A stretch of 64,000 nt of DNA from Dehalococcoidia bacterium (GTDB taxonomy: Bacteria; Chloroflexota; Dehalococcoidia; UBA2979): assembly GCA_963667465.2 (NCBI GenBank), contig CAXXDN010000002.1, positions 1,376,001 through 1,440,000 of the forward strand. The letters run 5' to 3'. This document shows positions 47,849 through 57,440 of the stretch, in pieces (the stretch's first letter is position 1; every line of letters begins with the position of its first letter). The position numbers were made by a program, and so were the translations under genes. The notes beneath the pieces were generated by a model. It saw nothing but the letters and a program-made list of their open reading frames with translations. It did no database searches and was not told where the DNA came from.

Positions 47849-49211
47849 GCACGAACTCGGGGTAGGCCTCGAGACCCAGCTCGCCCGCGTCCTGGCCGAG
47901 GCGCTCGACCTCGGGCGCTACGCGGACGCTCAGCGTCCTCGCCAGCACCTGCCAGAGCACCCAGGAGACCGTGAACACGAAGGCGCCTACCGAGAGCACG
48001 CCGACGATCTGCACGCCGAGGTCCGCCCCCGCCACGATCGAGGCGGCCAGCGTGCCCCAGATGCCGGCGAAGAGGTGGGCGGGCACCGCGCCCACCACGT
48101 CGTCGAGCTGGAGCTTCTCCATCAACCTCAACCCGGCGGTACAGATGATCCCGCCGATCGCGCCGATGATCACCGCCCAGTAGTGCTCGGTGATGTCCGG
48201 CCCGGCGGTGATCGAGACGAGCCCCGCAATCGCGCCGTTCAGGCCCGCGAAGAGGTCCATCCGCCCGAGAATGTAGCGAGAGAGACCGAGGGCGGCCATC
48301 ACGCCGGCCGCCGCCGCGAGGTTCGTGTTGACGAGCACGTGGCTCATCGCCACCGCGTCGGAGGCGCTGCCCAGCGCGAGCTGCGAGCCGCCGTTGAACC
48401 CGAACCAGCCGAACCAGAGGATGAAGACGCCCAGCGTCACCACCAGGATGTTCGAGGGCGGCGTCGACCGCGGCGTGCCGTCGCGACGGAACTTACCGAG
48501 CCTCGGACCGACCACGAGGATCCCGGCGAGGGCAGCCCAGCCGCCGACGCCGTGCACGATGGTGGAGCCGGCGAAGTCCTGGAACCCCAGCTCGGCCAGC
48601 CAGCCGCCGCCCCACGTCCACGCGCCGACGATCGGGTAGATCAGCGCCGTCAGCGCCAGCGTGAAGAGGAAGAACGTCCACATCTTGACGCGCTCGGCCA
48701 GCGCACCCGAGACAATCGAGGCCGCGGTCGCGACGAAGACCATCTGGAAGAACCAGTCGGACATCGTCGAGTAGCTGTTGTTCGCCACGATCGCGGCCGC
48801 GTCACCCTCCCCCGCCACGAGGGCGATCTCCTCGGAGGTCGGGCCGTAGAGCAGGTTGAAGGAGCCGATTACGCCGCCGACGATGTCGACGTACATCAGG
48901 TTGTAGCCGATGAAGAAGTAGGCCAGCCCCGCGATCGAGTAGAGGCCGATGTTCTTGAGGCAGATCATCGACGCGTTCTTGGTGCGCACCGAGCCCGACT
49001 CGAGCATCGTGAAGCCGGCGCACATCCACATCACGAGCGCGCCCCAGACGAGGAACGAGAAGGTGTTGAGGATGAACGCGGCCTCGGCCCCGATCTCGGC
49101 CTGCTGGGCCTGGGCCGTGCCGGAGAACAACAGGAAGAGCACGAGCGCGAGGACGCCCGAAGCCGCCAGGATGGCGGCGGGACGGCGCTTCGAGAGGATC
49201 GTGACGAGCAT
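47811..49211 (-). CDS. amt: ammonium transporter
   Basis: DFAGSTIVH, WFGWFGFNGGS, LDDVVGAVPAH. Confidence 0.97.
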   Translation of the reverse strand: MLVTILSKRRPAAILAASGVLALVLFLLFSGTAQAQQAEIGAEAAFILNTFSFLVWGALVMWMCAGFTMLESGSVRTKNASMICLKNIGLYSIAGLAYFFIGYNLMYVDIVGGVIGSFNLLYGPTSEEIALVAGEGDAAAIVANNSYSTMSDWFFQMVFVATAASIVSGALAERVKMWTFFLFTLALTALIYPIVGAWTWGGGWLAELGFQDFAGSTIVHGVGGWAALAGILVVGPRLGKFRRDGTPRSTPPSNILVVTLGVFILWFGWFGFNGGSQLALGSASDAVAMSHVLVNTNLAAAAGVMAALGLSRYILGRMDLFAGLNGAIAGLVSITAGPDITEHYWAVIIGAIGGIICTAGLRLMEKLQLDDVVGAVPAHLFAGIWGTLAASIVAGADLGVQIVGVLSVGAFVFTVSWVLWQVLARTLSVRVAPEVERLGQDAGELGLEAYPEFVLMPEEFYDDDED

Positions 49212-49340
49212 GGCGGCCTCCTCAATTTGCTACGGCGCGCTGGGGAGGTGACAACGATCGGGGATCGGCTGCGGTCACGTCTCCGCGACGGCGGACATGA
49301 TAGCGGAATGGGATGAGGTACCAAGCGCCGCGCTGCGCCG

Positions 49341-50942
49341 CTACGCGGCGCCCGGCGTTCCCAGCCTCCGCAGCACCTCGTCGTGGAGCCGGCCGTTCGA
49401 GGCGATGCGCGGTCCCGCGCCCTCTGCTGCGGCGCCCGCGGCGTCCGTGATGCGGCCCCCGGCTTCCTCGACGATCGGGACCAGGGCGGCCACGTCCCAC
49501 GGGTGCAGATCGACGCCGTCCAGCATGACGTCGGCCGCGCCCTCGGCGACGAGGCAGAAGCCCCAGAAGTCGCCGAACCCGCGCACCCGCCAGGCCTCGC
49601 CGAGCAGCGCCCGCGCACCCGGCCAGCGCTCGAGGGTCGCGACCGTCTCGCCGTACACGACCTGCGCCGCTGACAGCGTCGCCGCGTCCGAGACGTGGAT
49701 GCGCTCGCCCGCGCCACGGGAGCCGGTCGCTCCCCGGTACGCCCCGAGGCCGTGGCCCGCCCACCAGCGCGTCCCGAGCGCCGGCGCGGAGACGACGCCG
49801 ACCTCGATGCTTCCGTCGCGCTCGCAGGCGATCAGCGTCCCCCACACGGGGATGCCGCGCATGTAGCTGTGAGTCCCGTCGATCGGGTCGAGGATCCAGC
49901 GCGCCTCGGCTTCCCCGGAGCCCTCGTCGTCGCCCTGCTCCTCGCCGAGGACGGCGTGCGCCGGGTAGCGCTCGGCGATGCGCTCGCGCAGCAACGCCTC
50001 GATCTCGCGGTCGGCAGGCGTCACGTACGTGCCGTCGGCCTTGCGCTCCACGGCGTGCTCGCCTCGATAGTCCCGCATCGCGATCGCGTCGGCGGCGTCC
50101 GCCAGCTCGAGGGCGAAGGCGAGGATGTCGGTGGTGGTGTCACTCGCCGCCTCGCGACCTGGCGCGGCCCGCCGAACGTCTTCCATCAATTCGAAGTGCG
50201 GAGTCTGGTAGCCCTGCTGCCGCTGTCCCCACGGGGAGTCGAGGAGAGTGCGCACCCGTGCAGCAAGCAGCTCGCCGTGGTCCTTCGACGGCAGGATCAC
50301 GAAGCACCGCGGGACTTTGCGACGCCAGCGCAGCACGATCGGATTGAGCGCTCGGCCGAAGCGGCCGCGGATGCCGTCGGTGAGCTCCGCGATCTGTTGA
50401 TCTATCGGCTGCCGCTTCGCGTGCTGGTAGATGACGATGCTCTGTCCTCGCTCCCAGCAGCGGGCGAGATCGTCGTGGTAGGCGTACTTCGGACCGTTTG
50501 ACGCTGTAGGGCTGGTACGGCGGGGTGCAAGACCATTGTCGGGATCGACGAAGACGACGTCCGCCTCTCGCACGGTGTCGAGCCCTCGCTGCAGCCAGCC
50601 GTCGCGCTTCAGCAAGCGATCGTTGGGCGACTCCCGGGCCTCAAAGCTCAGCGCTTCATCGAAGAATGCGGTCCCTTCCGGCAGGATTCGCCGTCTCTGC
50701 ACCGCGGCGACAGAGCGCTCGGCCGCGACAACATCTTGCAACTCGTCGAAGAGATCGGGGTCGCACCTGCGCAGGCCCGCTTCCGGCGAATCGAGGTAGT
50801 CCGTGATCCCACCGTCGCCGTCGCCCTCCTCGTCCGGCACGCGGTACCACAGCACGCCAAGGCGAAGATCGTCGCCGCAGAGGGCGCGCAGCAATCCGTA
50901 CTTGCCGAAGTCGCCGATGTCGCCCGCGTAGCGATCCTGCAT
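49341..50942 (-). CDS. hisN: fusion of an uncharacterised MTase-like domain (N) and an IMPase-family histidinol-phosphatase (C)
   Basis: C-half has GEE, WILDPIDGT and WDVAA. N-half has MQDRYAGDIGDFGKYGLLRAL...VFVDPDNGL. One continuous frame. Confidence 0.82.
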   Translation of the reverse strand: MQDRYAGDIGDFGKYGLLRALCGDDLRLGVLWYRVPDEEGDGDGGITDYLDSPEAGLRRCDPDLFDELQDVVAAERSVAAVQRRRILPEGTAFFDEALSFEARESPNDRLLKRDGWLQRGLDTVREADVVFVDPDNGLAPRRTSPTASNGPKYAYHDDLARCWERGQSIVIYQHAKRQPIDQQIAELTDGIRGRFGRALNPIVLRWRRKVPRCFVILPSKDHGELLAARVRTLLDSPWGQRQQGYQTPHFELMEDVRRAAPGREAASDTTTDILAFALELADAADAIAMRDYRGEHAVERKADGTYVTPADREIEALLRERIAERYPAHAVLGEEQGDDEGSGEAEARWILDPIDGTHSYMRGIPVWGTLIACERDGSIEVGVVSAPALGTRWWAGHGLGAYRGATGSRGAGERIHVSDAATLSAAQVVYGETVATLERWPGARALLGEAWRVRGFGDFWGFCLVAEGAADVMLDGVDLHPWDVAALVPIVEEAGGRITDAAGAAAEGAGPRIASNGRLHDEVLRRLGTPGAA

Positions 50943-51874
50943 CAGGCCTCCCCCTTCGCCGGACCCTCACCCCCCGCCCTCTCCCGCAGGGGGAGAGGGG
51001 GCCGGATGTCCGCCTGCTCGCGAAACACGACGCCCTCGCACGACGCGAAGCGGCGGCGCATCACCGCGAACGCCTCCGGCGAGCTGTCGGCGAGGACGAA
51101 GCGGCGGCCGTGGCGCAGCGCCGCCTCGCCCGTCGTGCCGCTGCCCGCGACGAAGTCGCAGACCAGCCCGCCGGGCGGCGAGGAGGCGCGCACGATCCGC
51201 TCGAGGACACCGATCGGCTTCTGCGTCGGGTAGCCCAGCTTCTCCTTGCCCGTCGGGCTCACGATCGTGTGCCACCAGGTGTCCGTCGGCAGCTTGCCGC
51301 GCGCCGCCTTCTCGGGGCCCACGAGGCCGGGCGCCATGTAGGGGATGCGCTCGATGTCCTCGGCGTTGAAGCGGTTGCGCGCGGCGTCCTTCGCGTAGAA
51401 GAGGATGTTGTCGTGCTTCGCCGGCCAACGCCGCTTCGGCCGCGCGCCGTAGTCATAGGCCCAGATGATCTCGTTGACGAAGTTGACACGACCGAAGATC
51501 CCGTCCGCCAGCACCTTCGCGTAGTGCACCTCGCGGTAGTCGAGGTGCAGGTAGAGGCTGCCCGAGGGCGCGAGCACCCGCTGCGCCTCGACGAGGAACG
51601 GCTCGAGGAAGCCGAGGTAATCGTCGCGGTCGTCCTCGAAGGAGCGGCTGCCCAGCCGCTCGGTCTCGTAGCGACGCCCGCCGAAGCCGCTGCGGTCGCC
51701 CTCCCCGTCCGCGACCCGTCGCGTGCGCAGCTGCTCGCGCGTCTGCCGCCGGCCGGTGTTGAACGGCGGGTCGAGGTAGACGAGGTCGACGCTTTCGTCC
51801 TCGAGGGTGCGCGCGACCGCCACACCGTCAGCGCAGTGCACGACGCCGCGCGGCGCGGCAGTGCTGTCGCTCAC
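50942..51874 (-). CDS. N4/N6 DNA methyltransferase, beta class
   Basis: LVYLDPPF precedes YPTQKP and DFVAGSGTT. Confidence 0.94.
   Translation of the reverse strand: MSDSTAAPRGVVHCADGVAVARTLEDESVDLVYLDPPFNTGRRQTREQLRTRRVADGEGDRSGFGGRRYETERLGSRSFEDDRDDYLGFLEPFLVEAQRVLAPSGSLYLHLDYREVHYAKVLADGIFGRVNFVNEIIWAYDYGARPKRRWPAKHDNILFYAKDAARNRFNAEDIERIPYMAPGLVGPEKAARGKLPTDTWWHTIVSPTGKEKLGYPTQKPIGVLERIVRASSPPGGLVCDFVAGSGTTGEAALRHGRRFVLADSSPEAFAVMRRRFASCEGVVFREQADIRPPLPLRERAGGEGPAKGEA
50964..51001 (+). repeat. REP-like repeat inside the 3' end of the MTase gene
   Basis: ccctcaccccccgccctctcccgcagggggagaggggg, read as PPLPLRERAGGEG on the minus strand. Confidence 0.85.
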
Positions 51875-51881
51875 GACGCCC

Positions 51882-52640
51882 TCACGCCGTCAGCGTGCCC
51901 TTGGTGCTCGGCACCTCGCCGGCGATGCGCGGATCGCGGCGAGTGGCGGCATCGAGGGCGCGCCCGAGCGCCTTGAAGGCGGCCTCGGCGATGTGGTGGT
52001 CGTTCGCGCCGGCGAGCTGGCGGACGTGCAGCGCGCAGCGCGCGCCCTGCGAGAACGATTGCAGGGCGTGGCCGATCATCTCCGTCGGCGCCTGGCCGAT
52101 TCGCTCGCTGCCCCAGTCGAAAGCGATCGCGGCGTAGGGACGGCCCGAACAGTCGACCACCGCCTGCACCAGCGCCTCGTCGAGCGGCACGGTCGCGTCG
52201 CCCATGCGCACGAGGCCGGAGCGGTCGCCCAGCGCCTCGTCGACGGCCGTGCCGAGCGCCAGCGCGCAGTCCTCCATCGTGTGGTGCTCGTCGACGTGCA
52301 GGTCGCCCTCGCAGCGCAGTTCGAGGTCGAAGCGGCCGTGCTTGGCGAACGCCTCGAGGACGTGGTCATAGAAGCCGACGCCGGTCGCGATCTCGGCGCG
52401 GCCGGTGCCGTCGATGTCGATCTCGACGTGGATGCGGGTCTCGGCGGTGCTGCGGTCGAGGGTGGCGCGGCGGGCGCCGCCATCGAGGTCGCGCTTGACG
52501 CGCTTGAGGTTGGTGTTGATCGCCTGGCGGGTCACGCCAAGCTCCTCGGCGAGCCGCGTCTGGCCGCCGAGCACGTCAAGCTCGCCCGCCTCGTAGGCCT
52601 CGCGGACGCGCAAATAGGTCTCGCTCTTGATCTCGACCAT
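51882..52640 (-). CDS. hisB: imidazoleglycerol-phosphate dehydratase with an N-terminal HTH extension
   Basis: IGPD motifs DEHHTMED, PLDEAL, NDHHIAEA, PSTKG; about 55 extra N-terminal aa including QTRLAEELGVTRQAINTNLKR. Confidence 0.93.
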   Translation of the reverse strand: MVEIKSETYLRVREAYEAGELDVLGGQTRLAEELGVTRQAINTNLKRVKRDLDGGARRATLDRSTAETRIHVEIDIDGTGRAEIATGVGFYDHVLEAFAKHGRFDLELRCEGDLHVDEHHTMEDCALALGTAVDEALGDRSGLVRMGDATVPLDEALVQAVVDCSGRPYAAIAFDWGSERIGQAPTEMIGHALQSFSQGARCALHVRQLAGANDHHIAEAAFKALGRALDAATRRDPRIAGEVPSTKGTLTA

Positions 52641-52692
52641 GGGGCCGACCTTTCCGGTGCGCCCATCGAGCGTACGGCTTAAGTTAAGCTCT

Positions 52693-52723
52693 GTCTACCA
52701 CAAACAAGGATCATGTGGTTGAC
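52693..52723. promoter_or_regulatory. operator-like inverted repeat upstream of HTH-hisB
   Basis: GTCTACCACA-N11-TGTGGTTGAC (9 of 10 positions pair) in an AT-rich spacer. Confidence 0.55.
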
Positions 52724-52734
52724 GCTTGTTGACT

Positions 52735-53904
52735 TCAGCCACTTTTGCTACCTGGCTGCCCCTCAATGTCTTGACGCGCCTCGGACAGTGCCGCGAGCAG
52801 ACGCGCGCTGTCAGCGGGAGTGCCGACCGAGATGCGGACGTGGTCGCGCAGGCGCTCGTGGCCGAAGAAGCGCACGAAGACGCCGCGCCGCGCCAGCGCC
52901 TCGCGCAGCGCCGCCCCGCTGCCGGCGGTGAGGCGGCAGAGCAGGAAGTTGGCCTGCGAGGGCACGGGCTCCAGCCAGCCGCCCGCGCGCAGCTGCACCG
53001 CCAGGCGGTCACGCTCCCCGGCGATCTCGCAGGCGCGCTCGTCGAGCAGCGCCGCGTCCTCCAGCGAGGCGAGCGCGGCCGCCTCGGCGGCGGTGCTCAC
53101 GCCGTAGGGCTGCTTGCACTGCATCAGCAGCGCGGCGACCGAGGCCGGCATCACGCCGTAGCCGACACGCAGCCCGGCCAGACCGGCCCACTTGCTGAAC
53201 GTGCGCAGCACGATCAGCGGCGCGCCTCCCTCGCTCGTTGCGTCGGCCACGAGGCTCGGCGATCCGCTGTGCACTCCCCCGTAGCCGCTTGCGAACTCCA
53301 CGTAGGCCTCGTCGATGACAACGATCGCGCCGCTCGCGCGCAGGCGCTCGGCTGCGCCCTGCGGCAGCAGCCCGCCCGTCGGGTTGTTGGGCGAGGGCAG
53401 GAAGACGGCCTTCGCGCCCTCGCAGGCCGCGAGGAGCGCGTCGAGGTCCACCGACCAGTCGCCGCGCCTCGGCACGTCGACCAGCTCGGCACCCGCGATC
53501 TCCGCGCCGAAGGGATACATCCCGAACGTCGGCGAGGCGATCACGACACGGTCGCCCGCATCGACGAAGATGCGGAAGACGAGGTCGATGATCTCGTCGG
53601 CGCCCGCACCGGCGACGATGCACTCCGGCGGCACTTCATGGCGCGCGCCGAGGGCGTCACGCAGCCTTCGCTGCTCCGGGTCCGGGTAGCGGTGCGCGGC
53701 GTAGCCGCCCGCGAGCGCCGCCAGGGCTCGCGGGGAAGCGCCGTAGGGGTTCTCGTTGCCGTCGAGCTTGACGATCGCCTCCGGCGCGACGCCGTAGCGG
53801 GCGGCGAGCTGCGCGGGCGGGTCGATCGGCTCGTAGCCGCGCAGCGAGCGCAGCGGCGGGCGCAGCGCGCCCTCGAGGTCGAAGCTCGCGGAGTCCGTCA
53901 TCAC
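52735..53904 (-). CDS. hisC: histidinol-phosphate aminotransferase
   Basis: KLDGNENPY, SPNNPTG, IDEAY, RTFSKWAGLAGLRVGY. Confidence 0.96.
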   Translation of the reverse strand: MMTDSASFDLEGALRPPLRSLRGYEPIDPPAQLAARYGVAPEAIVKLDGNENPYGASPRALAALAGGYAAHRYPDPEQRRLRDALGARHEVPPECIVAGAGADEIIDLVFRIFVDAGDRVVIASPTFGMYPFGAEIAGAELVDVPRRGDWSVDLDALLAACEGAKAVFLPSPNNPTGGLLPQGAAERLRASGAIVVIDEAYVEFASGYGGVHSGSPSLVADATSEGGAPLIVLRTFSKWAGLAGLRVGYGVMPASVAALLMQCKQPYGVSTAAEAAALASLEDAALLDERACEIAGERDRLAVQLRAGGWLEPVPSQANFLLCRLTAGSGAALREALARRGVFVRFFGHERLRDHVRISVGTPADSARLLAALSEARQDIEGQPGSKSG

Positions 53905-55244
53905 AGTCCCTCCAGCCTGCGCTCGATCGAGCGGGCGTGGCCGGTCAGTCCCTCGGCGCGGGCCAGCCGCGCGGCGTGCGGCCCGAGCTCGGCGAGTGCG
54001 CCTTCCGGCAGCGCGATCACGGAGCTGACCTTCAGGAAGTCGAGCACCGAGAGTGGCGAGGCGTAACGCGCCGAGCCGCCGGTGGGCATGACGTGGCTCG
54101 GCCCCGCGACGTAGTCGCCGAGCACCTCGGGCGAGTGGTCGCCGACGAAGACGCCGCCCGCCTGCGTGATCTGCGGCGCGATCGCCTCCGGCTCGCGCGT
54201 CAGCAGGCAGAGGTGCTCCGGCGCGAACTCGTTGGCGAGCGCCACCGCCTCGTCGAGGCTGCCCGCGACGACCGCCCCACCGCCCTCGACCGCCGCGCGC
54301 GCGATCGCGCCTCGCTCGAGATCTGCGAGCTGGCGCTCGACCTCGGCCTGCACCGCCTCGGCGTGCGCGCGCGTGGTCGTGATCAGCACCGGCCTCGCGA
54401 GGGCGTCGTGCTCCGCCTGCGCCAGCAGGTCTGCGGCGCAGAGGTCGGGCGCGGCCTCGTCGTCGGCGAGCACGAGCGTCTCGGTCGGGCCATAGATCGC
54501 GTCGATGCCGACCTCGCCGAAGAGCTGCTGCTTGGCGAGCGTCACGAAGACGTTGCCCGGCCCGAAGATCTTGTCGGCGCGCGGGATCGTCTCCGTGCCC
54601 AGCGCCAGCGCCGCGATCGCCTGCGCGCCCGAGGCGCGGAAGATGCGCTGCACCCCGGCGAGCTCGGCCGCCACCAGCTTCAGCGGGTGCACGCTGCCGT
54701 CCTCGCGCGCGGCCGTGACGCCGATGCGATCCGGCACGCCCGCGACGAGTCCGGGCAGCGCCGTGTGCAGCACCGAGGAGGGCAGCACCGCCACGCTGCC
54801 GGTCATATAGACGCCCGCCCTCACGATCGGCTGTACCGTCATGCCGACGCCGTCCTCGAGGAAGGAGCGCGGGCCGTGCGCCAACTGGCGCTCGTGGTAG
54901 TGGCGCACGCGGTCGGCGGCGAAGCGCAGCGAGTCGAGCAGCTCGTCGGGCGTCTCCGCGAACGCCGCCTCGATCTCCTCGCGGCCCACCTCGAGTGGCG
55001 CGTCCGCGGAGCCGTCGAAGCGCTGCGAGAAGGCGCGTACCGCTGCGTCGCCCTCCTCGCGCACTCGCGCGACGATCCGCGCGACCACCTCGGAGGCGCT
55101 CAGGTCCGCGCCGAACGTCTCGCGGATCGAGGCGCGCACGGGCGGCGGCAGCGCGGGGTCGCCAAGCGGGTCGCGCCGCAGCACGCCGGCGCGAGCGGCC
55201 GTGGCGCCCTCGACGATGCGCAGCGCGGGCGTGGTGGCAGCCAT
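53901..55244 (-). CDS. hisD: histidinol dehydrogenase
   Basis: GAQAIAALA.GT, GPGNVFV, DLLAQAEHD, APEHL, GDYVAGPSHVMPT. Confidence 0.97.
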   Translation of the reverse strand: MAATTPALRIVEGATAARAGVLRRDPLGDPALPPPVRASIRETFGADLSASEVVARIVARVREEGDAAVRAFSQRFDGSADAPLEVGREEIEAAFAETPDELLDSLRFAADRVRHYHERQLAHGPRSFLEDGVGMTVQPIVRAGVYMTGSVAVLPSSVLHTALPGLVAGVPDRIGVTAAREDGSVHPLKLVAAELAGVQRIFRASGAQAIAALALGTETIPRADKIFGPGNVFVTLAKQQLFGEVGIDAIYGPTETLVLADDEAAPDLCAADLLAQAEHDALARPVLITTTRAHAEAVQAEVERQLADLERGAIARAAVEGGGAVVAGSLDEAVALANEFAPEHLCLLTREPEAIAPQITQAGGVFVGDHSPEVLGDYVAGPSHVMPTGGSARYASPLSVLDFLKVSSVIALPEGALAELGPHAARLARAEGLTGHARSIERRLEGL

Positions 55245-55999
55245 CAGCGCCGCGGCAGGTATTCGCGGAGGCGCTCGGCGGCCAGCTCGGTCGCCTCCTC
55301 GAGGTAGCGCGTGACCTCCTGCTCGGTGACGTGCGAGAGCGACTCCTGGATCAGCCCGCCCGGGTTCTGCGCGACCTCCTCGACCTCCTCCTCGCTGAAA
55401 CCGCCGCGCCGCAAGTGGATCTGCATCACGCGCGGGAAGCGCTCCCAGTCCGGGCGCTGGTAGGTGATGCCGCGTGTGAAGTCGCGCCACTCCGGCCACA
55501 GCCGTTCCTCGATGAAGCCGACGGCGATCGCCGCCTCGGTCGTGTCGATGGCGGTGCGAATCTCCGCGAGGGCGGCGTCGTTCTCCAGCTCGCGACGGTT
55601 CATCTCGTACTGCAGGGCGCGGTCGAGGATGTTGGCGCGCAGATCGCCGCCGAGCGACGAGCGCTCACCGAAGAAGCGGCGGTAGACGCTCTGGATGTAG
55701 TGCTCGTCCATCAGCAGGTGCGTGACGTAGCCCGCCACGAACGCCCTCGTGCTCTCGTTGAGGCCGGCGACGTTCCGGAGGTCCGGGTGCTCCTCGAACA
55801 TGCGCGCCACCGAGTCCTGCTGCTCGAAGTCGTCGAGCTCGAAGAAGTGCGTCAGACGGCGATCCACGCGCAGCAGCACGCGGATGTCCGGCGCCGTGGA
55901 GCCCAGGTAGTAGGACCCGCGATCGGCGTCGATGCACGGGTGGCCGAGACGGTCGGCCAGCCCGTAGGCACTGGCGAGGTGCGATCCCAGTGAGGGCAC
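55244..55999 (-). CDS. zinc-dependent phospholipase C-like protein
   Basis: MP...SH, LGSTAPD, THFF, GYVTHLLMDE; GGAGG RBS. Confidence 0.75.
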   Translation of the reverse strand: MPSLGSHLASAYGLADRLGHPCIDADRGSYYLGSTAPDIRVLLRVDRRLTHFFELDDFEQQDSVARMFEEHPDLRNVAGLNESTRAFVAGYVTHLLMDEHYIQSVYRRFFGERSSLGGDLRANILDRALQYEMNRRELENDAALAEIRTAIDTTEAAIAVGFIEERLWPEWRDFTRGITYQRPDWERFPRVMQIHLRRGGFSEEEVEEVAQNPGGLIQESLSHVTEQEVTRYLEEATELAAERLREYLPRR

Positions 56000-56000
56000 G

Positions 56001-57440
56001 TCAGACCTCCGCGGCTCCCGCCCGCAGCCGCTCGACCAGATCGTCGCGCAGCTCGCCGCGCGCACCCGGCGGACGCTCCGTCGATCCGATCGCGCAGTTC
56101 GTCGACTCCATGATGACGTCGATCATACGGAGCCGGTTGGCGCGCAGGGTGGAGCCCGTCTCCGTGCCCTCGATCAGGATCTCGGCGTCGTCCGGCACGA
56201 AGCCCTCGGATGCCCCGGAGATCGGCAGCACCTGGTAGCGCCCGAGGTGCCGCTCGCGCGCGTAGTGGTCGGCCAGCGCAACGTACTCCGAGGCGACGCG
56301 GATCGGCCGCTTTGGGTCGTCGCGCCGCCACCACGCAATCGCCTCGGCGATCGTCTCGGCGGGCACGGCCTCGGGCACGACGGCTCCGAGGCGATAGCGG
56401 CTGCGGCGCAGGTCGCACAGCTCGGCGACCGGCGAGAGCGGGAACGCCGCGCGGTGCGCAGCCAGCCAGTCGCGCCCCGTCAGCGCGAGGTCGAAGCAGC
56501 CGAGCGCGACGGCCTGCGGCATGTCCTGCGGGCGGATCACCTTTACCTCGAAGCCCTCGATACCGGAGCGCGGGTGGCGGTCGGTGGCGCCGTCGCCGTA
56601 GCCCTCGAAGCGAAGTCCGGCGGAGGCAAGCGCCTCGACGGTGTGCCGCTGCGCGTGCCCGTCCGGCAGCGCAAGCCGGAAGACGCCACGATCGTTATCC
56701 GAGGTCCGCGAGGCGATGCCCTCAAGGCCGCCGGTGCGGCCGTTGCCGCGCGGCAGCGGGCGCGCCTCGGAGGCGTCCCGGTCGCCCGCCGGCAGCGCGA
56801 GCAGCGGCCCGAGCGCCTCCGCGAGATCGCGACTCGCGAGCGCGTCGCGGTTTGCGACGAGCGTGGCCGAGCCGCGCTGCACCTCGGCGACGACGGCCAG
56901 CCCCTCGCGGGCGAGGACGGCGCCGGCCGCCGCCGCGTCGAGCGGCACGCTGAGGATCGCGGCGTCGGCGTCCTCGGGTGGCCACGCCTCGGGCTGGCCC
57001 CAGACCTCGATCACGCGGTAGTCCGGCACGCGCAGGTAGTTGAGCGCACGCGCCGCCAGGTTCGGGTGCGTCGTCGTCACCCGCACGCCCGGCGTCGCCG
57101 CGAGGCGGTCGAGCGTGACGCCCTCGGGCGCCGCGAGCACGAGCCGCCGGCCTCCGAGGTCGAGCGGACGCAGCGGCGTCAGCGAGTCGAGCGGGTAGCG
57201 CGCGAGCAGTTCATCGATCCAGGCGCGGCTGGTGATGCCGAGATCGTACTGGCCGAGCGCGACCTGGATTGGAATGTCCTCCTCGGCGAAGACGCGCACG
57301 ACCACGCCCGGCCGGCCTTCGACAGGGAAGCGGTAGGCGCGCGATCCGCCCTCGTAGCCCTCGACGGCGAAGCCGGCCGCTCGCAGGCGCTCGGCGAGCG
57401 GCGCGCGCAGGTCGCCGCGCGGCAGCGCGACGCGGATCAC
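56001..57440 (-). CDS. hisG: ATP phosphoribosyltransferase with two tandem short-form HisG units
   Basis: Unit 1 VALPRG...DIPIQVALGQYDLGI. Unit 2 LALPDG...RPQDMPQAVALG.FDLA.TG.D...ETGSTLRAN.L. Confidence 0.92.
   Translation of the reverse strand: MIRVALPRGDLRAPLAERLRAAGFAVEGYEGGSRAYRFPVEGRPGVVVRVFAEEDIPIQVALGQYDLGITSRAWIDELLARYPLDSLTPLRPLDLGGRRLVLAAPEGVTLDRLAATPGVRVTTTHPNLAARALNYLRVPDYRVIEVWGQPEAWPPEDADAAILSVPLDAAAAGAVLAREGLAVVAEVQRGSATLVANRDALASRDLAEALGPLLALPAGDRDASEARPLPRGNGRTGGLEGIASRTSDNDRGVFRLALPDGHAQRHTVEALASAGLRFEGYGDGATDRHPRSGIEGFEVKVIRPQDMPQAVALGCFDLALTGRDWLAAHRAAFPLSPVAELCDLRRSRYRLGAVVPEAVPAETIAEAIAWWRRDDPKRPIRVASEYVALADHYARERHLGRYQVLPISGASEGFVPDDAEILIEGTETGSTLRANRLRMIDVIMESTNCAIGSTERPPGARGELRDDLVERLRAGAAEV

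Follow-up and report, generated by a model that had tools for sequence, protein, structure and literature searches.

A helix-turn-helix domain fused to HisB in one clade of Dehalococcoidia, with conserved candidate operator and promoter sequences upstream

Why would an enzyme of histidine biosynthesis carry what looks like a DNA-binding domain at its N terminus? The question is raised by a hisB gene on the minus strand of a 64,000-nucleotide stretch of DNA (hereafter, the window) from a Dehalococcoidia bacterium (GCA_963667465.2, contig CAXXDN010000002.1, positions 1,376,001 to 1,440,000). The gene encodes an imidazoleglycerol-phosphate dehydratase (IGPD) preceded by a helix-turn-helix (HTH) extension, and we refer to the product as HTH-HisB. 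Based on comparisons among related genomes, the fusion is real, translated and under strong purifying selection, and no artefact of annotation. We further give a probability of roughly 0.55 to the reading that HTH-HisB binds conserved hexamers upstream of its gene and, in doing so, regulates its own expression from a new promoter inside the his operon. The gene is made up as follows, with the ratio of nonsynonymous to synonymous substitution rates abbreviated as dN/dS.

51882 to 52640, minus strand: HTH-HisB coding sequence, 252 amino acids (aa) plus stop, ATG start (list of open reading frames [ORFs], Pfam/NCBIfam, full-length matches in 10 genomes)
52476 to 52640, minus strand: N-terminal extension, a three-helix HTH, residues 1-55 (AlphaFold2 [AF2], structure and profile matches, dN/dS)
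52461 to 52490, minus strand: variable linker, residues 51-60, DLDGGARRAT in the window genome (dN/dS, alignment)
51882 to 52475, minus strand: IGPD domain, residues 56-252, with both D.HH..E metal motifs (PF00475, NF002116, 6fwh)
52649 to 52655, minus strand: Shine-Dalgarno sequence GGAAAGG, 8 nt 5' of the ATG, kept in 10 of 10 genomes

The IGPD part is complete and presumably active. Pfam IGPD (PF00475) matches residues 86-229 over its whole profile (1-144 of 144; E = 4.3e-59, 199.2 bits, cut-off 27). Residues 56-250 are covered by the HisB equivalog model of NCBIfam, NF002116 (profile 3-197 of 197; 270.9 bits, cut-off 269), and solved IGPD structures can be aligned along their full length with residues 57-250 (6fwh, E = 7e-64). 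The last two matches, which begin at residues 56 and 57, bear out the initial annotation, made from the letters of the window, in which about 55 residues were placed ahead of the enzyme. The metal motifs VDEHHTMED and NDHHIAEA are present, align with those of 6fwh and are kept in every alignment row; we take these D.HH..E motifs to be Mn-binding. Because HTH-HisB is the sole IGPD found in the window genome (2.97 Mb, 93.6% complete) and its catalytic motifs are intact, enzyme function must be retained. The protein has no Pfam match to a haloacid dehalogenase (HAD) domain, and the HisNB model NF003937 reaches 224 bits against a cut-off of 443, at profile positions 136-355 only, via the IGPD part.

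Long chance open frames occur in high-GC genomes, and the simplest deflationary account is that translation begins at the IGPD boundary, with the 55 upstream codons as an untranslated leader that happens to be open. Two observations could be cited for it: 20 long IGPD frames elsewhere in the phylum have no non-IGPD domain in front, except one with hisD, and linker residue 56 is a GTG-coded Val in five of the ten fusion genomes, so that a minor internal start at this residue is possible in those five. The pattern of selection argues otherwise. Across all 45 pairs of the ten fusion genomes, which are kin and represent one lineage rather than ten independent trials, dN/dS (Nei-Gojobori) is lowest in residues 2-50 (0.07), higher in the IGPD core (0.19) and highest in the linker (0.88). 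The extension is thus held in frame more tightly than the enzyme itself, and taken together these values are those expected of a folded domain that is under selection and attached by a flexible tether.

The initial annotation had allowed for an extension that is not conserved; across the ten genomes it is nearly invariant (43 of 58 alignment columns), which is far beyond chance, and the DNA immediately upstream of the start diverges freely. The ribosome-binding site that had been pointed out lies at 52649-52655, 8 nt from the ATG, and reads GGAAGGG or GGGAGGG in the nine other genomes; its distance to the start is constant. This start is ATG in six genomes, and in the other four the ATG has become ACC and an adjacent GTG comes next. 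No internal start lies near the IGPD boundary, as had been stated: in the window genome ATG, GTG and TTG are absent from codon 37 to codon 76 (the last scanned), as they are in four other fusion genomes, and the closest candidate is a GTG at V36, within the HTH. Free-standing homologues align across the entire extension, and the IGPD start that had been called normal (RRATLDR...) corresponds to the start of HisB in the sister clade, M[ST]ERRATV. The selection pattern for practical purposes excludes a mis-called start, to which we assign a very small probability.

The fusion is found in one clade. A six-frame search of 41 related genomes recovered the full-length protein (residues 1 or 2 to 252, 90-100% identity) from ten genomes of the window's genus; in eight other genomes of the genus, as in every more distant genome, the match begins only at about residue 56, and one member of the genus has no match. 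In a maximum-likelihood tree of IGPD-core DNA (19 of 20 loci, G006 having been left out by the motif filter), the ten fusion genes form one branch with support of 96/94, a single state change. A pattern scan of 185,579 species (one genome each) located the extension at nine loci besides the window genome, all in metagenome-assembled genomes (MAGs) labelled Dehalococcoidia or Chloroflexi, which by contig coordinates are the same genomes as the six-frame matches. A word-index search with the extension alone likewise returned four clusters at 90% identity, whose 249-255-aa proteins are all fused, and a word-index search for relatives of 30-97 aa found none.

Free-standing relatives came from a HMMER profile search of 1.84 billion protein representatives, which gave 11 matches at E up to 0.001: one fusion, four free-standing mini-HTH proteins (58-87 aa, 39-50% identity across the whole extension), two unrelated repeat proteins and four generic multi-HTH proteins. 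Within the class (401 genomes), a profile search matched strongly only in G000, G001 and G009, and 11 other genomes had partial generic HTH matches (E = 3e-5 to 8e-3). No paralogue of the extension was found in the window genome. In a phylum sample, IGPD was present in 288 of 401 genomes, and among the matches listed (150 of about 295) an HTH domain was found in none of 20 long IGPD frames (19 of the 20 listed at a length of at least 250 aa, plus one frame from the six-frame search). One Chloroflexota IGPD cluster in the Atlas, with a 269-aa representative, has HTH_3 on 12% of its members (score 0.79); this may be just the HTH-HisB family, or a case where automatic annotation already shows HTH and IGPD together.

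What kind of domain is the extension? The HTH stretch named in the initial annotation, QTRLAEELGVTRQAINTNLKRV, is present, and the structure prediction suggested there, run with AF2, places helices at residues 7-17, 26-34 and 38-54 with a predicted local distance difference test (pLDDT) score of 81-89. When residues 2-56 were searched against the structures of all representatives, every match was a DNA-binding HTH domain (Z = 5.7-6.4). Among them were AsnC (Z = 6.4, root-mean-square deviation [rmsd] 2.3, 49 aligned) and the KorA-operator complex (Z = 5.9, rmsd 2.6, 51 aligned), along with sigma region 4 (Z = 6.1), a homeodomain (Z = 6.0) and the DeoR-operator complex (Z = 6.0). All of these lie below Z = 8, so the matches point to the fold type and not to the family. 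By sequence profile, the nearest solved protein is the prophage Pfl6 Cro (2pij, E = 1.6e-4), followed by KorA/TrfB, and BirA appears only at chance level (8f8u, E = 1.3). The extension falls short of the Pfam cut-offs of Cro (PF09048, 17.8 against 32.7 bits) and P22_Cro (PF14549, 14.3 against 30.2 bits), and one free-standing relative (P0006) is just over that of YdaS_toxin (30.2 against 30 bits). There is no Pfam match to HTH_3/Xre at E up to 0.1, and PADLOC has no match for the HTH. Based on sequence and predicted structure, we place the extension in a rare, unnamed family of tri-helical HTH domains that resemble Cro and KorA. Its putative recognition helix, TRQAINTNLKRVKR, is invariant in ten of ten genomes and partly shared with the free-standing mini-HTH proteins.

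If the extension binds DNA, the nearest place to look is the 94-bp spacer between hisC and hisB, which has 50% G+C against ~72% around it. The initial annotation had proposed a gel-shift assay on 52641-52734; this stretch holds a conserved candidate promoter and three GTCAAC-type hexamers, which co-occur with the fusion.

52718 to 52733, minus strand: tandem hexamers GTCAAC-AAGC-GTCAAC (hex1 and hex2), a candidate operator, with a 10-bp period, 20 nt upstream of the -35
52692 to 52697, minus strand: candidate -35, TAGACA (5/6 to TTGACA), identity 0.97 in 10 genomes
52683 to 52688, minus strand: hexamer 3 (hex3), CTTAAC in the window genome, located in the promoter spacer at a constant 3 nt from the -35, identity 0.83
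52669 to 52674, minus strand: candidate -10, TACGCT (TAnnnT conserved), 17-18 nt from the -35 in all 10 genomes, identity 0.80

TAGACA and TAnnnT are read as a promoter because of the 5/6 match to the -35 consensus and the 17-18 nt spacing. Ten of ten fusion genomes share one phase-locked layout: GTCAAY-N4-GTCAAY, 20 nt (21 in one), TAGACA, 3 nt, (G)TTGAC, 8-9 nt, TAnnnT, and then the Shine-Dalgarno sequence, ~8-10 nt and the start codon. The distance from the -10 to the Shine-Dalgarno sequence is 13-14 nt in eight of ten by pattern parse; the other two were parsed onto a GGAAGGG just past the -10, and their Shine-Dalgarno sequence is in register in the alignment. In most relatives hex3 is GTTGAC, the inverted form of GTCAAC. 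Mean pairwise identity, given above for the other three elements, is 0.74 in hex1 and 0.92 in hex2, and it is at the random level both in the 20 nt upstream of hex1 (0.29) and in the 20-nt spacer between hex2 and the -35 (0.30), whose length is kept (20 nt in nine genomes, 21 nt in one). The motif set is also unique within genomes. The tandem pattern occurs once in the 2.97 Mb of the window genome, as does the 16-mer with the -35 and hex3; it occurs once, at the same location, in four of five other fusion genomes (hex1 being GTCAGC in the fifth, G009) and in none of five non-fusion relatives. Because no site was found outside the gene's own promoter, a wider regulon is unlikely and local autoregulation is likely. 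An Rfam scan of 49000-57000 yielded no family at its gathering score and two chance-level snoRNA matches (E = 0.35 and 0.66).

These data bear on whether the extension might serve as a structural, solubility or protein-interaction appendage that leaves DNA alone, with the hexamers serving RNA polymerase or a different host regulator. Such a role would fit the lack of any HTH family over its curated cut-off, the fold matches below Z = 8 and the absence of a second copy of the site from the genome. It does not explain the invariant recognition helix, part of which is common to the free-standing proteins, or the motif set, which is seen only where the HTH is; in addition, all structural neighbours of the extension are DNA-binding domains. 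We therefore consider a role without DNA binding to be improbable.

The spacer also informs the origin of the fusion. There is no spacer in the sister clade, where the M[ST]ERRATV start of HisB lies right at the hisC stop or overlaps with it, which argues that the promoter arrived with the HTH. We conclude that, in one event, a mini-HTH gene and its own regulatory DNA were placed between hisC and hisB and fused in frame, and that this insertion replaced the first three codons of hisB. On the database matches, the source is a rare family of free-standing mini-HTH proteins that appear Cro/YdaS/KorA-like. The fusion is young and limited to one clade within one genus of the class Dehalococcoidia, consistent with a single origin. 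Two further leads from these searches were set aside. Matches to the free-standing relative P0007 in viral contigs share the generic HTH motif only (at L050, for instance, the match is to the C-terminal HTH in a phage protein of 663 aa), and the match to P0006 in metagenome contigs is a 225-aa protein that shares the HTH motif only and is MarR-like by eye.

As a separate observation, DNA runs X2 and X6, in which this locus is present, contain a second, diverged contig at 52390-52864, in which 473 bases are replaced by 219 letters. This is the size expected for an unfused hisC-hisB junction, so fused and unfused relatives seemingly co-occur in these samples.

How might the fusion act? In the autoregulation that we favor, HTH-HisB would be a genuinely bifunctional gene product. 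The captured HTH and its ~10-residue flexible linker replaced the first three IGPD residues, and ~95 bp of regulatory DNA, a candidate sigma-70-type promoter flanked by GTCAAC-type hexamers, came with it. The HTH heads would bind the tandem pair, which lies ~20 nt 5' of the -35, as well as the inverted copy in the promoter spacer. IGPD is described in part of PMC10978614 as a 432-symmetric 24-mer of ~110 Å whose N-terminal sheet forms the outer surface. An outward-facing N-terminal sheet agrees with the surface display of HTH heads that had been envisaged for the fusion (part of PMC10978614). With the heads displayed on the outer surface, the IGPD oligomer (trimers, 24-mer) would provide the multimerization that the 50-residue HTH lacks. 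Occupancy of hex3 would repress the promoter, so that hisB and the genes downstream of it would be under negative autoregulation; this internal promoter would drive hisB, a methyltransferase gene, an RlmJ-like gene and hisN. Repression via the spacer site is the likeliest direction of regulation; the upstream pair could instead, or additionally, activate.

Several points weigh against autoregulation through these sites. The -10 matches the consensus at only 3/6, the promoter is called from conservation alone, and a consensus promoter scan of 51700-53000 returned no promoters. Hex3 is degenerate in the window genome (CTTAAC), and hex1 is GTAATA in two genomes and GTCAGC in one. Two direct repeats and one inverted repeat are not the usual dyad of HTH dimers, and some other factor could be the one that recognizes the conserved hexamers. 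Because there was one ancestral insertion, the co-occurrence of motif and fusion is not independent evidence. As for the domain, Z scores below 8 are not decisive, and the Pfam HTH scores are below their curated cut-offs (YdaS_toxin, PF15943, 25.4 against 30). The AF2 model of the IGPD part, which would be needed for the geometry of the heads on the cage, is poor (mean pLDDT 46.5) and unusable because the alignment had only 19 rows. Finally, in metatranscriptome run X1 (7% of sampled words present), the RNA contigs are 85-95% alike, from relatives, and cover the IGPD core in part, leaving the extension and the spacer essentially uncovered.

The same sites could also work in the opposite direction, with the HTH as an activator that the new promoter requires. 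The insertion would have cut hisB from translational coupling with hisC, leaving the sole IGPD dependent on a weak, HTH-dependent promoter, so that positive autoregulation would be an evolutionary ratchet without metabolic sensing. Given a transcription start ~7 nt past the -10, the tandem hexamers upstream of the -35 would fall at roughly -58 and -68, and class I activators sit at such upstream positions. The weak -10 and the abutting hisC and hisB of the sister species fit as well. The third hexamer, within the promoter spacer, is in a position typical of repression, and no terminator was found after hisC (a consensus terminator scan of 51700-53000 gave none), so that hisB may still be expressed by read-through from the his promoter. 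Overall, we regard an activator as unlikely.

A more elaborate form of the favored autoregulation would make HTH-HisB an assembly-sensing trigger enzyme. Withdrawal of Mn2+ leads to inactive IGPD trimers in some species, according to part of PMC10978614. If only the Mn2+-loaded, catalytically competent 24-mer holds its HTH heads at a spacing wide enough to bridge the tandem hexamers and the inverted spacer hexamer, which are ~35 bp apart center to center, then inactive trimers formed after loss of Mn2+ would release the DNA, and more HisB would be made when IGPD is inactive. We hold this version to be doubtful; if true, a 24-valent enzyme cage would be acting as a transcription switch that responds to metal or substrate, observed early in its evolution.

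The genes around hisB suggest one further partner for the HTH. On the minus strand, the order is hisD, hisC, the 94-bp spacer, HTH-hisB, a Type II DNA methyltransferase and a 533-aa ORF with HisN.

53901 to 55499, minus strand: hisD, histidinol dehydrogenase (PF00815, E = 9.8e-138, match from residue 134)
52735 to 53904, minus strand: hisC, histidinol-phosphate aminotransferase (PF00155, E = 2.8e-53), with its stop 1 nt from hex1
50942 to 51874, minus strand: Type II N6/N4 DNA methyltransferase (PF01555, E = 7.8e-42; PADLOC MTase_II, E = 2.1e-128)
49341 to 50942, minus strand: 533-aa ORF with an RlmJ-like domain (1-270) and a HisN-type histidinol-phosphatase (271-533) (TIGR02067, AF2, Foldseek)

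The HTH could serve the methyltransferase and RlmJ-like genes, as a controller-like switch of a modification module to which the HisB fusion is incidental. The controller proteins of restriction-modification systems are small HTH proteins that regulate their own genes through sites around the promoter, and here a Type II methyltransferase (the PADLOC match above) and an RlmJ-like gene follow hisB in the same orientation. Moreover, the GTCAAC/GTTGAC hexamers fit GTYRAC, which we take to be a type II restriction-modification recognition pattern. The two genes are, however, present in the sister clade without the HTH, and hence are older than it; the extension has no HTH_3/Xre match and no PADLOC match; and the domain next to the methyltransferase resembles a methyltransferase fold and not a nuclease. 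An Xre/HTH_3 HTH beside a restriction endonuclease gene, by which a controller (C) protein would be recognized, is not found here. A controller function thus has a slim chance in our estimation. The methyltransferase and the neighboring domain were also rejected as a restriction-modification pair, the domain being RlmJ-like and not nuclease-like. An idea that the hexamer pattern does raise is that the operator hexamers (52683-52733) might be methylated by the operon's own methyltransferase.

Returning to autoregulation by HTH-HisB, we can compare it with known enzymes that carry DNA-binding domains. BirA joins an HTH to biotin ligase, PutA a ribbon-helix-helix to proline dehydrogenase/pyrroline-5-carboxylate dehydrogenase, and NadR an HTH to nicotinamide mononucleotide adenylyltransferase. 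In all three, an N-terminal DNA-binding domain sits on an active pathway enzyme and autoregulation takes place at the enzyme's own operon. HTH-HisB would resemble them as an enzyme with its own N-terminal domain of DNA-binding type and a proposed action on its own operon. It differs from them in enzyme, HTH type and age, and belongs to none of those families: it has a young, 50-residue Cro/KorA-like module without a dimerization part, on a 24-mer cage enzyme, and its own promoter is the only candidate target found. The small phage and plasmid repressors Cro (2pij), KorA/TrfB of plasmid RK2 and YdaS-type HTH proteins are the closest neighbors of the extension in sequence and structure; with them the extension, as predicted, shares a small three-helix HTH and, presumably, its own operator by its own promoter. 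Unlike the HTH-HisB head, which lacks a dimerization element and is hung on an enzyme oligomer, those proteins are free-standing dimers with such an element. In BzdR, the enzyme-like domain has become a sensor, whereas the enzyme of HTH-HisB is the cell's only IGPD and must stay catalytic. The two are alike in that a DNA-binding domain is joined to an enzyme fold, which in BzdR is an Xre-type HTH with a shikimate-kinase-like domain (part of PMC3602430).

Among fusions of his genes, the closest parallel is enterobacterial bifunctional HisB (HisNB), a HAD-type histidinol-phosphatase joined to IGPD, which tells us that IGPD tolerates N-terminal fusions (part of PMC1963479). Both proteins have an N-terminal addition to a full IGPD within a his operon; the added domain of HisNB is a second enzyme, whereas that of HTH-HisB is of DNA-binding type. 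Reviews of his-gene fusions list hisNB, hisIE and others, and no DNA-binding fusion to hisB was found in the available text of the his-fusion review PMC1963479 (0 occurrences of "DNA-binding") or of the his-regulation review PMC9413887. Known control of his operons, as covered in that part of PMC9413887, involves attenuators, T-box leaders and HisR (TrpR family). None of these is an enzyme fusion, and HisR, unlike the HTH of HTH-HisB, is a separate TrpR-family protein. We found no description of an HTH-IGPD architecture in the full-text literature (subscription journals and InterPro architectures lay outside the scope), and no transcription factor of the enzyme-fusion kind for histidine biosynthesis is described in the literature searched.

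If regulatory, the fusion would extend the short list of metabolic enzymes with a DNA-binding domain of their own, both by a further enzyme and by a novel oligomeric logic. It also offers, in organisms represented by uncultured MAGs, an unusually clean snapshot of the birth of a regulator: unfused sisters persist, the donor mini-HTH family persists, and the promoter and operator came along.

The insertion point itself also collects toxin-antitoxin cassettes. Five of the ten fusion genomes have an extra 270-830 bp between hisC and the repeats, with toxin-like DUF4258 and antitoxin-like DUF2283 ORFs (in oriented loci, L003 592-1420, L004 860-1420, L005 891-1420, L007 1147-1420 and L010 878-1420). 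G009 has a different, internally duplicated partner ORF in the gap, and G017 has the DUF2283 part alone. The hisC-hisB gap thus appears to be an insertion hotspot, a landing site for small mobile cassettes.

The remaining observations concern the neighboring genes. The longest hisD ORF has 532 aa, of which the first ~100 residues are Arg/Gly/Pro-rich, and because the profile match begins at residue 134, the true start is probably well inside the ORF. The methyltransferase is present in both clades of the window's genus; with the RlmJ-like gene, it lies between hisB and hisN genus-wide and not in two neighboring genera (L019 and L020), in the latter of which hisN directly follows hisB. The RlmJ-like domain is well predicted (AF2 pLDDT 89) and matches RlmJ in Foldseek (4blw, E = 3.4e-5, template-modeling score 0.47-0.48); it has a DUF519-like fold and belongs to an unnamed family of >1500 members, mostly free-standing elsewhere. 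The HisN part scores 246 bits with TIGR02067, under its cut-off of 275. These two domains share one ORF here, and relatives such as G009 have a separate 249-aa RlmJ-like protein, so the joint ORF, as read from the assembly, may be either a real fusion or an assembly frameshift. In another Chloroflexota genome (L075, G528:C5:67000-68400), a single open frame joins the C-terminal half of histidinol dehydrogenase to a complete IGPD domain with no stop between them, which may be a hisD-hisB fusion.

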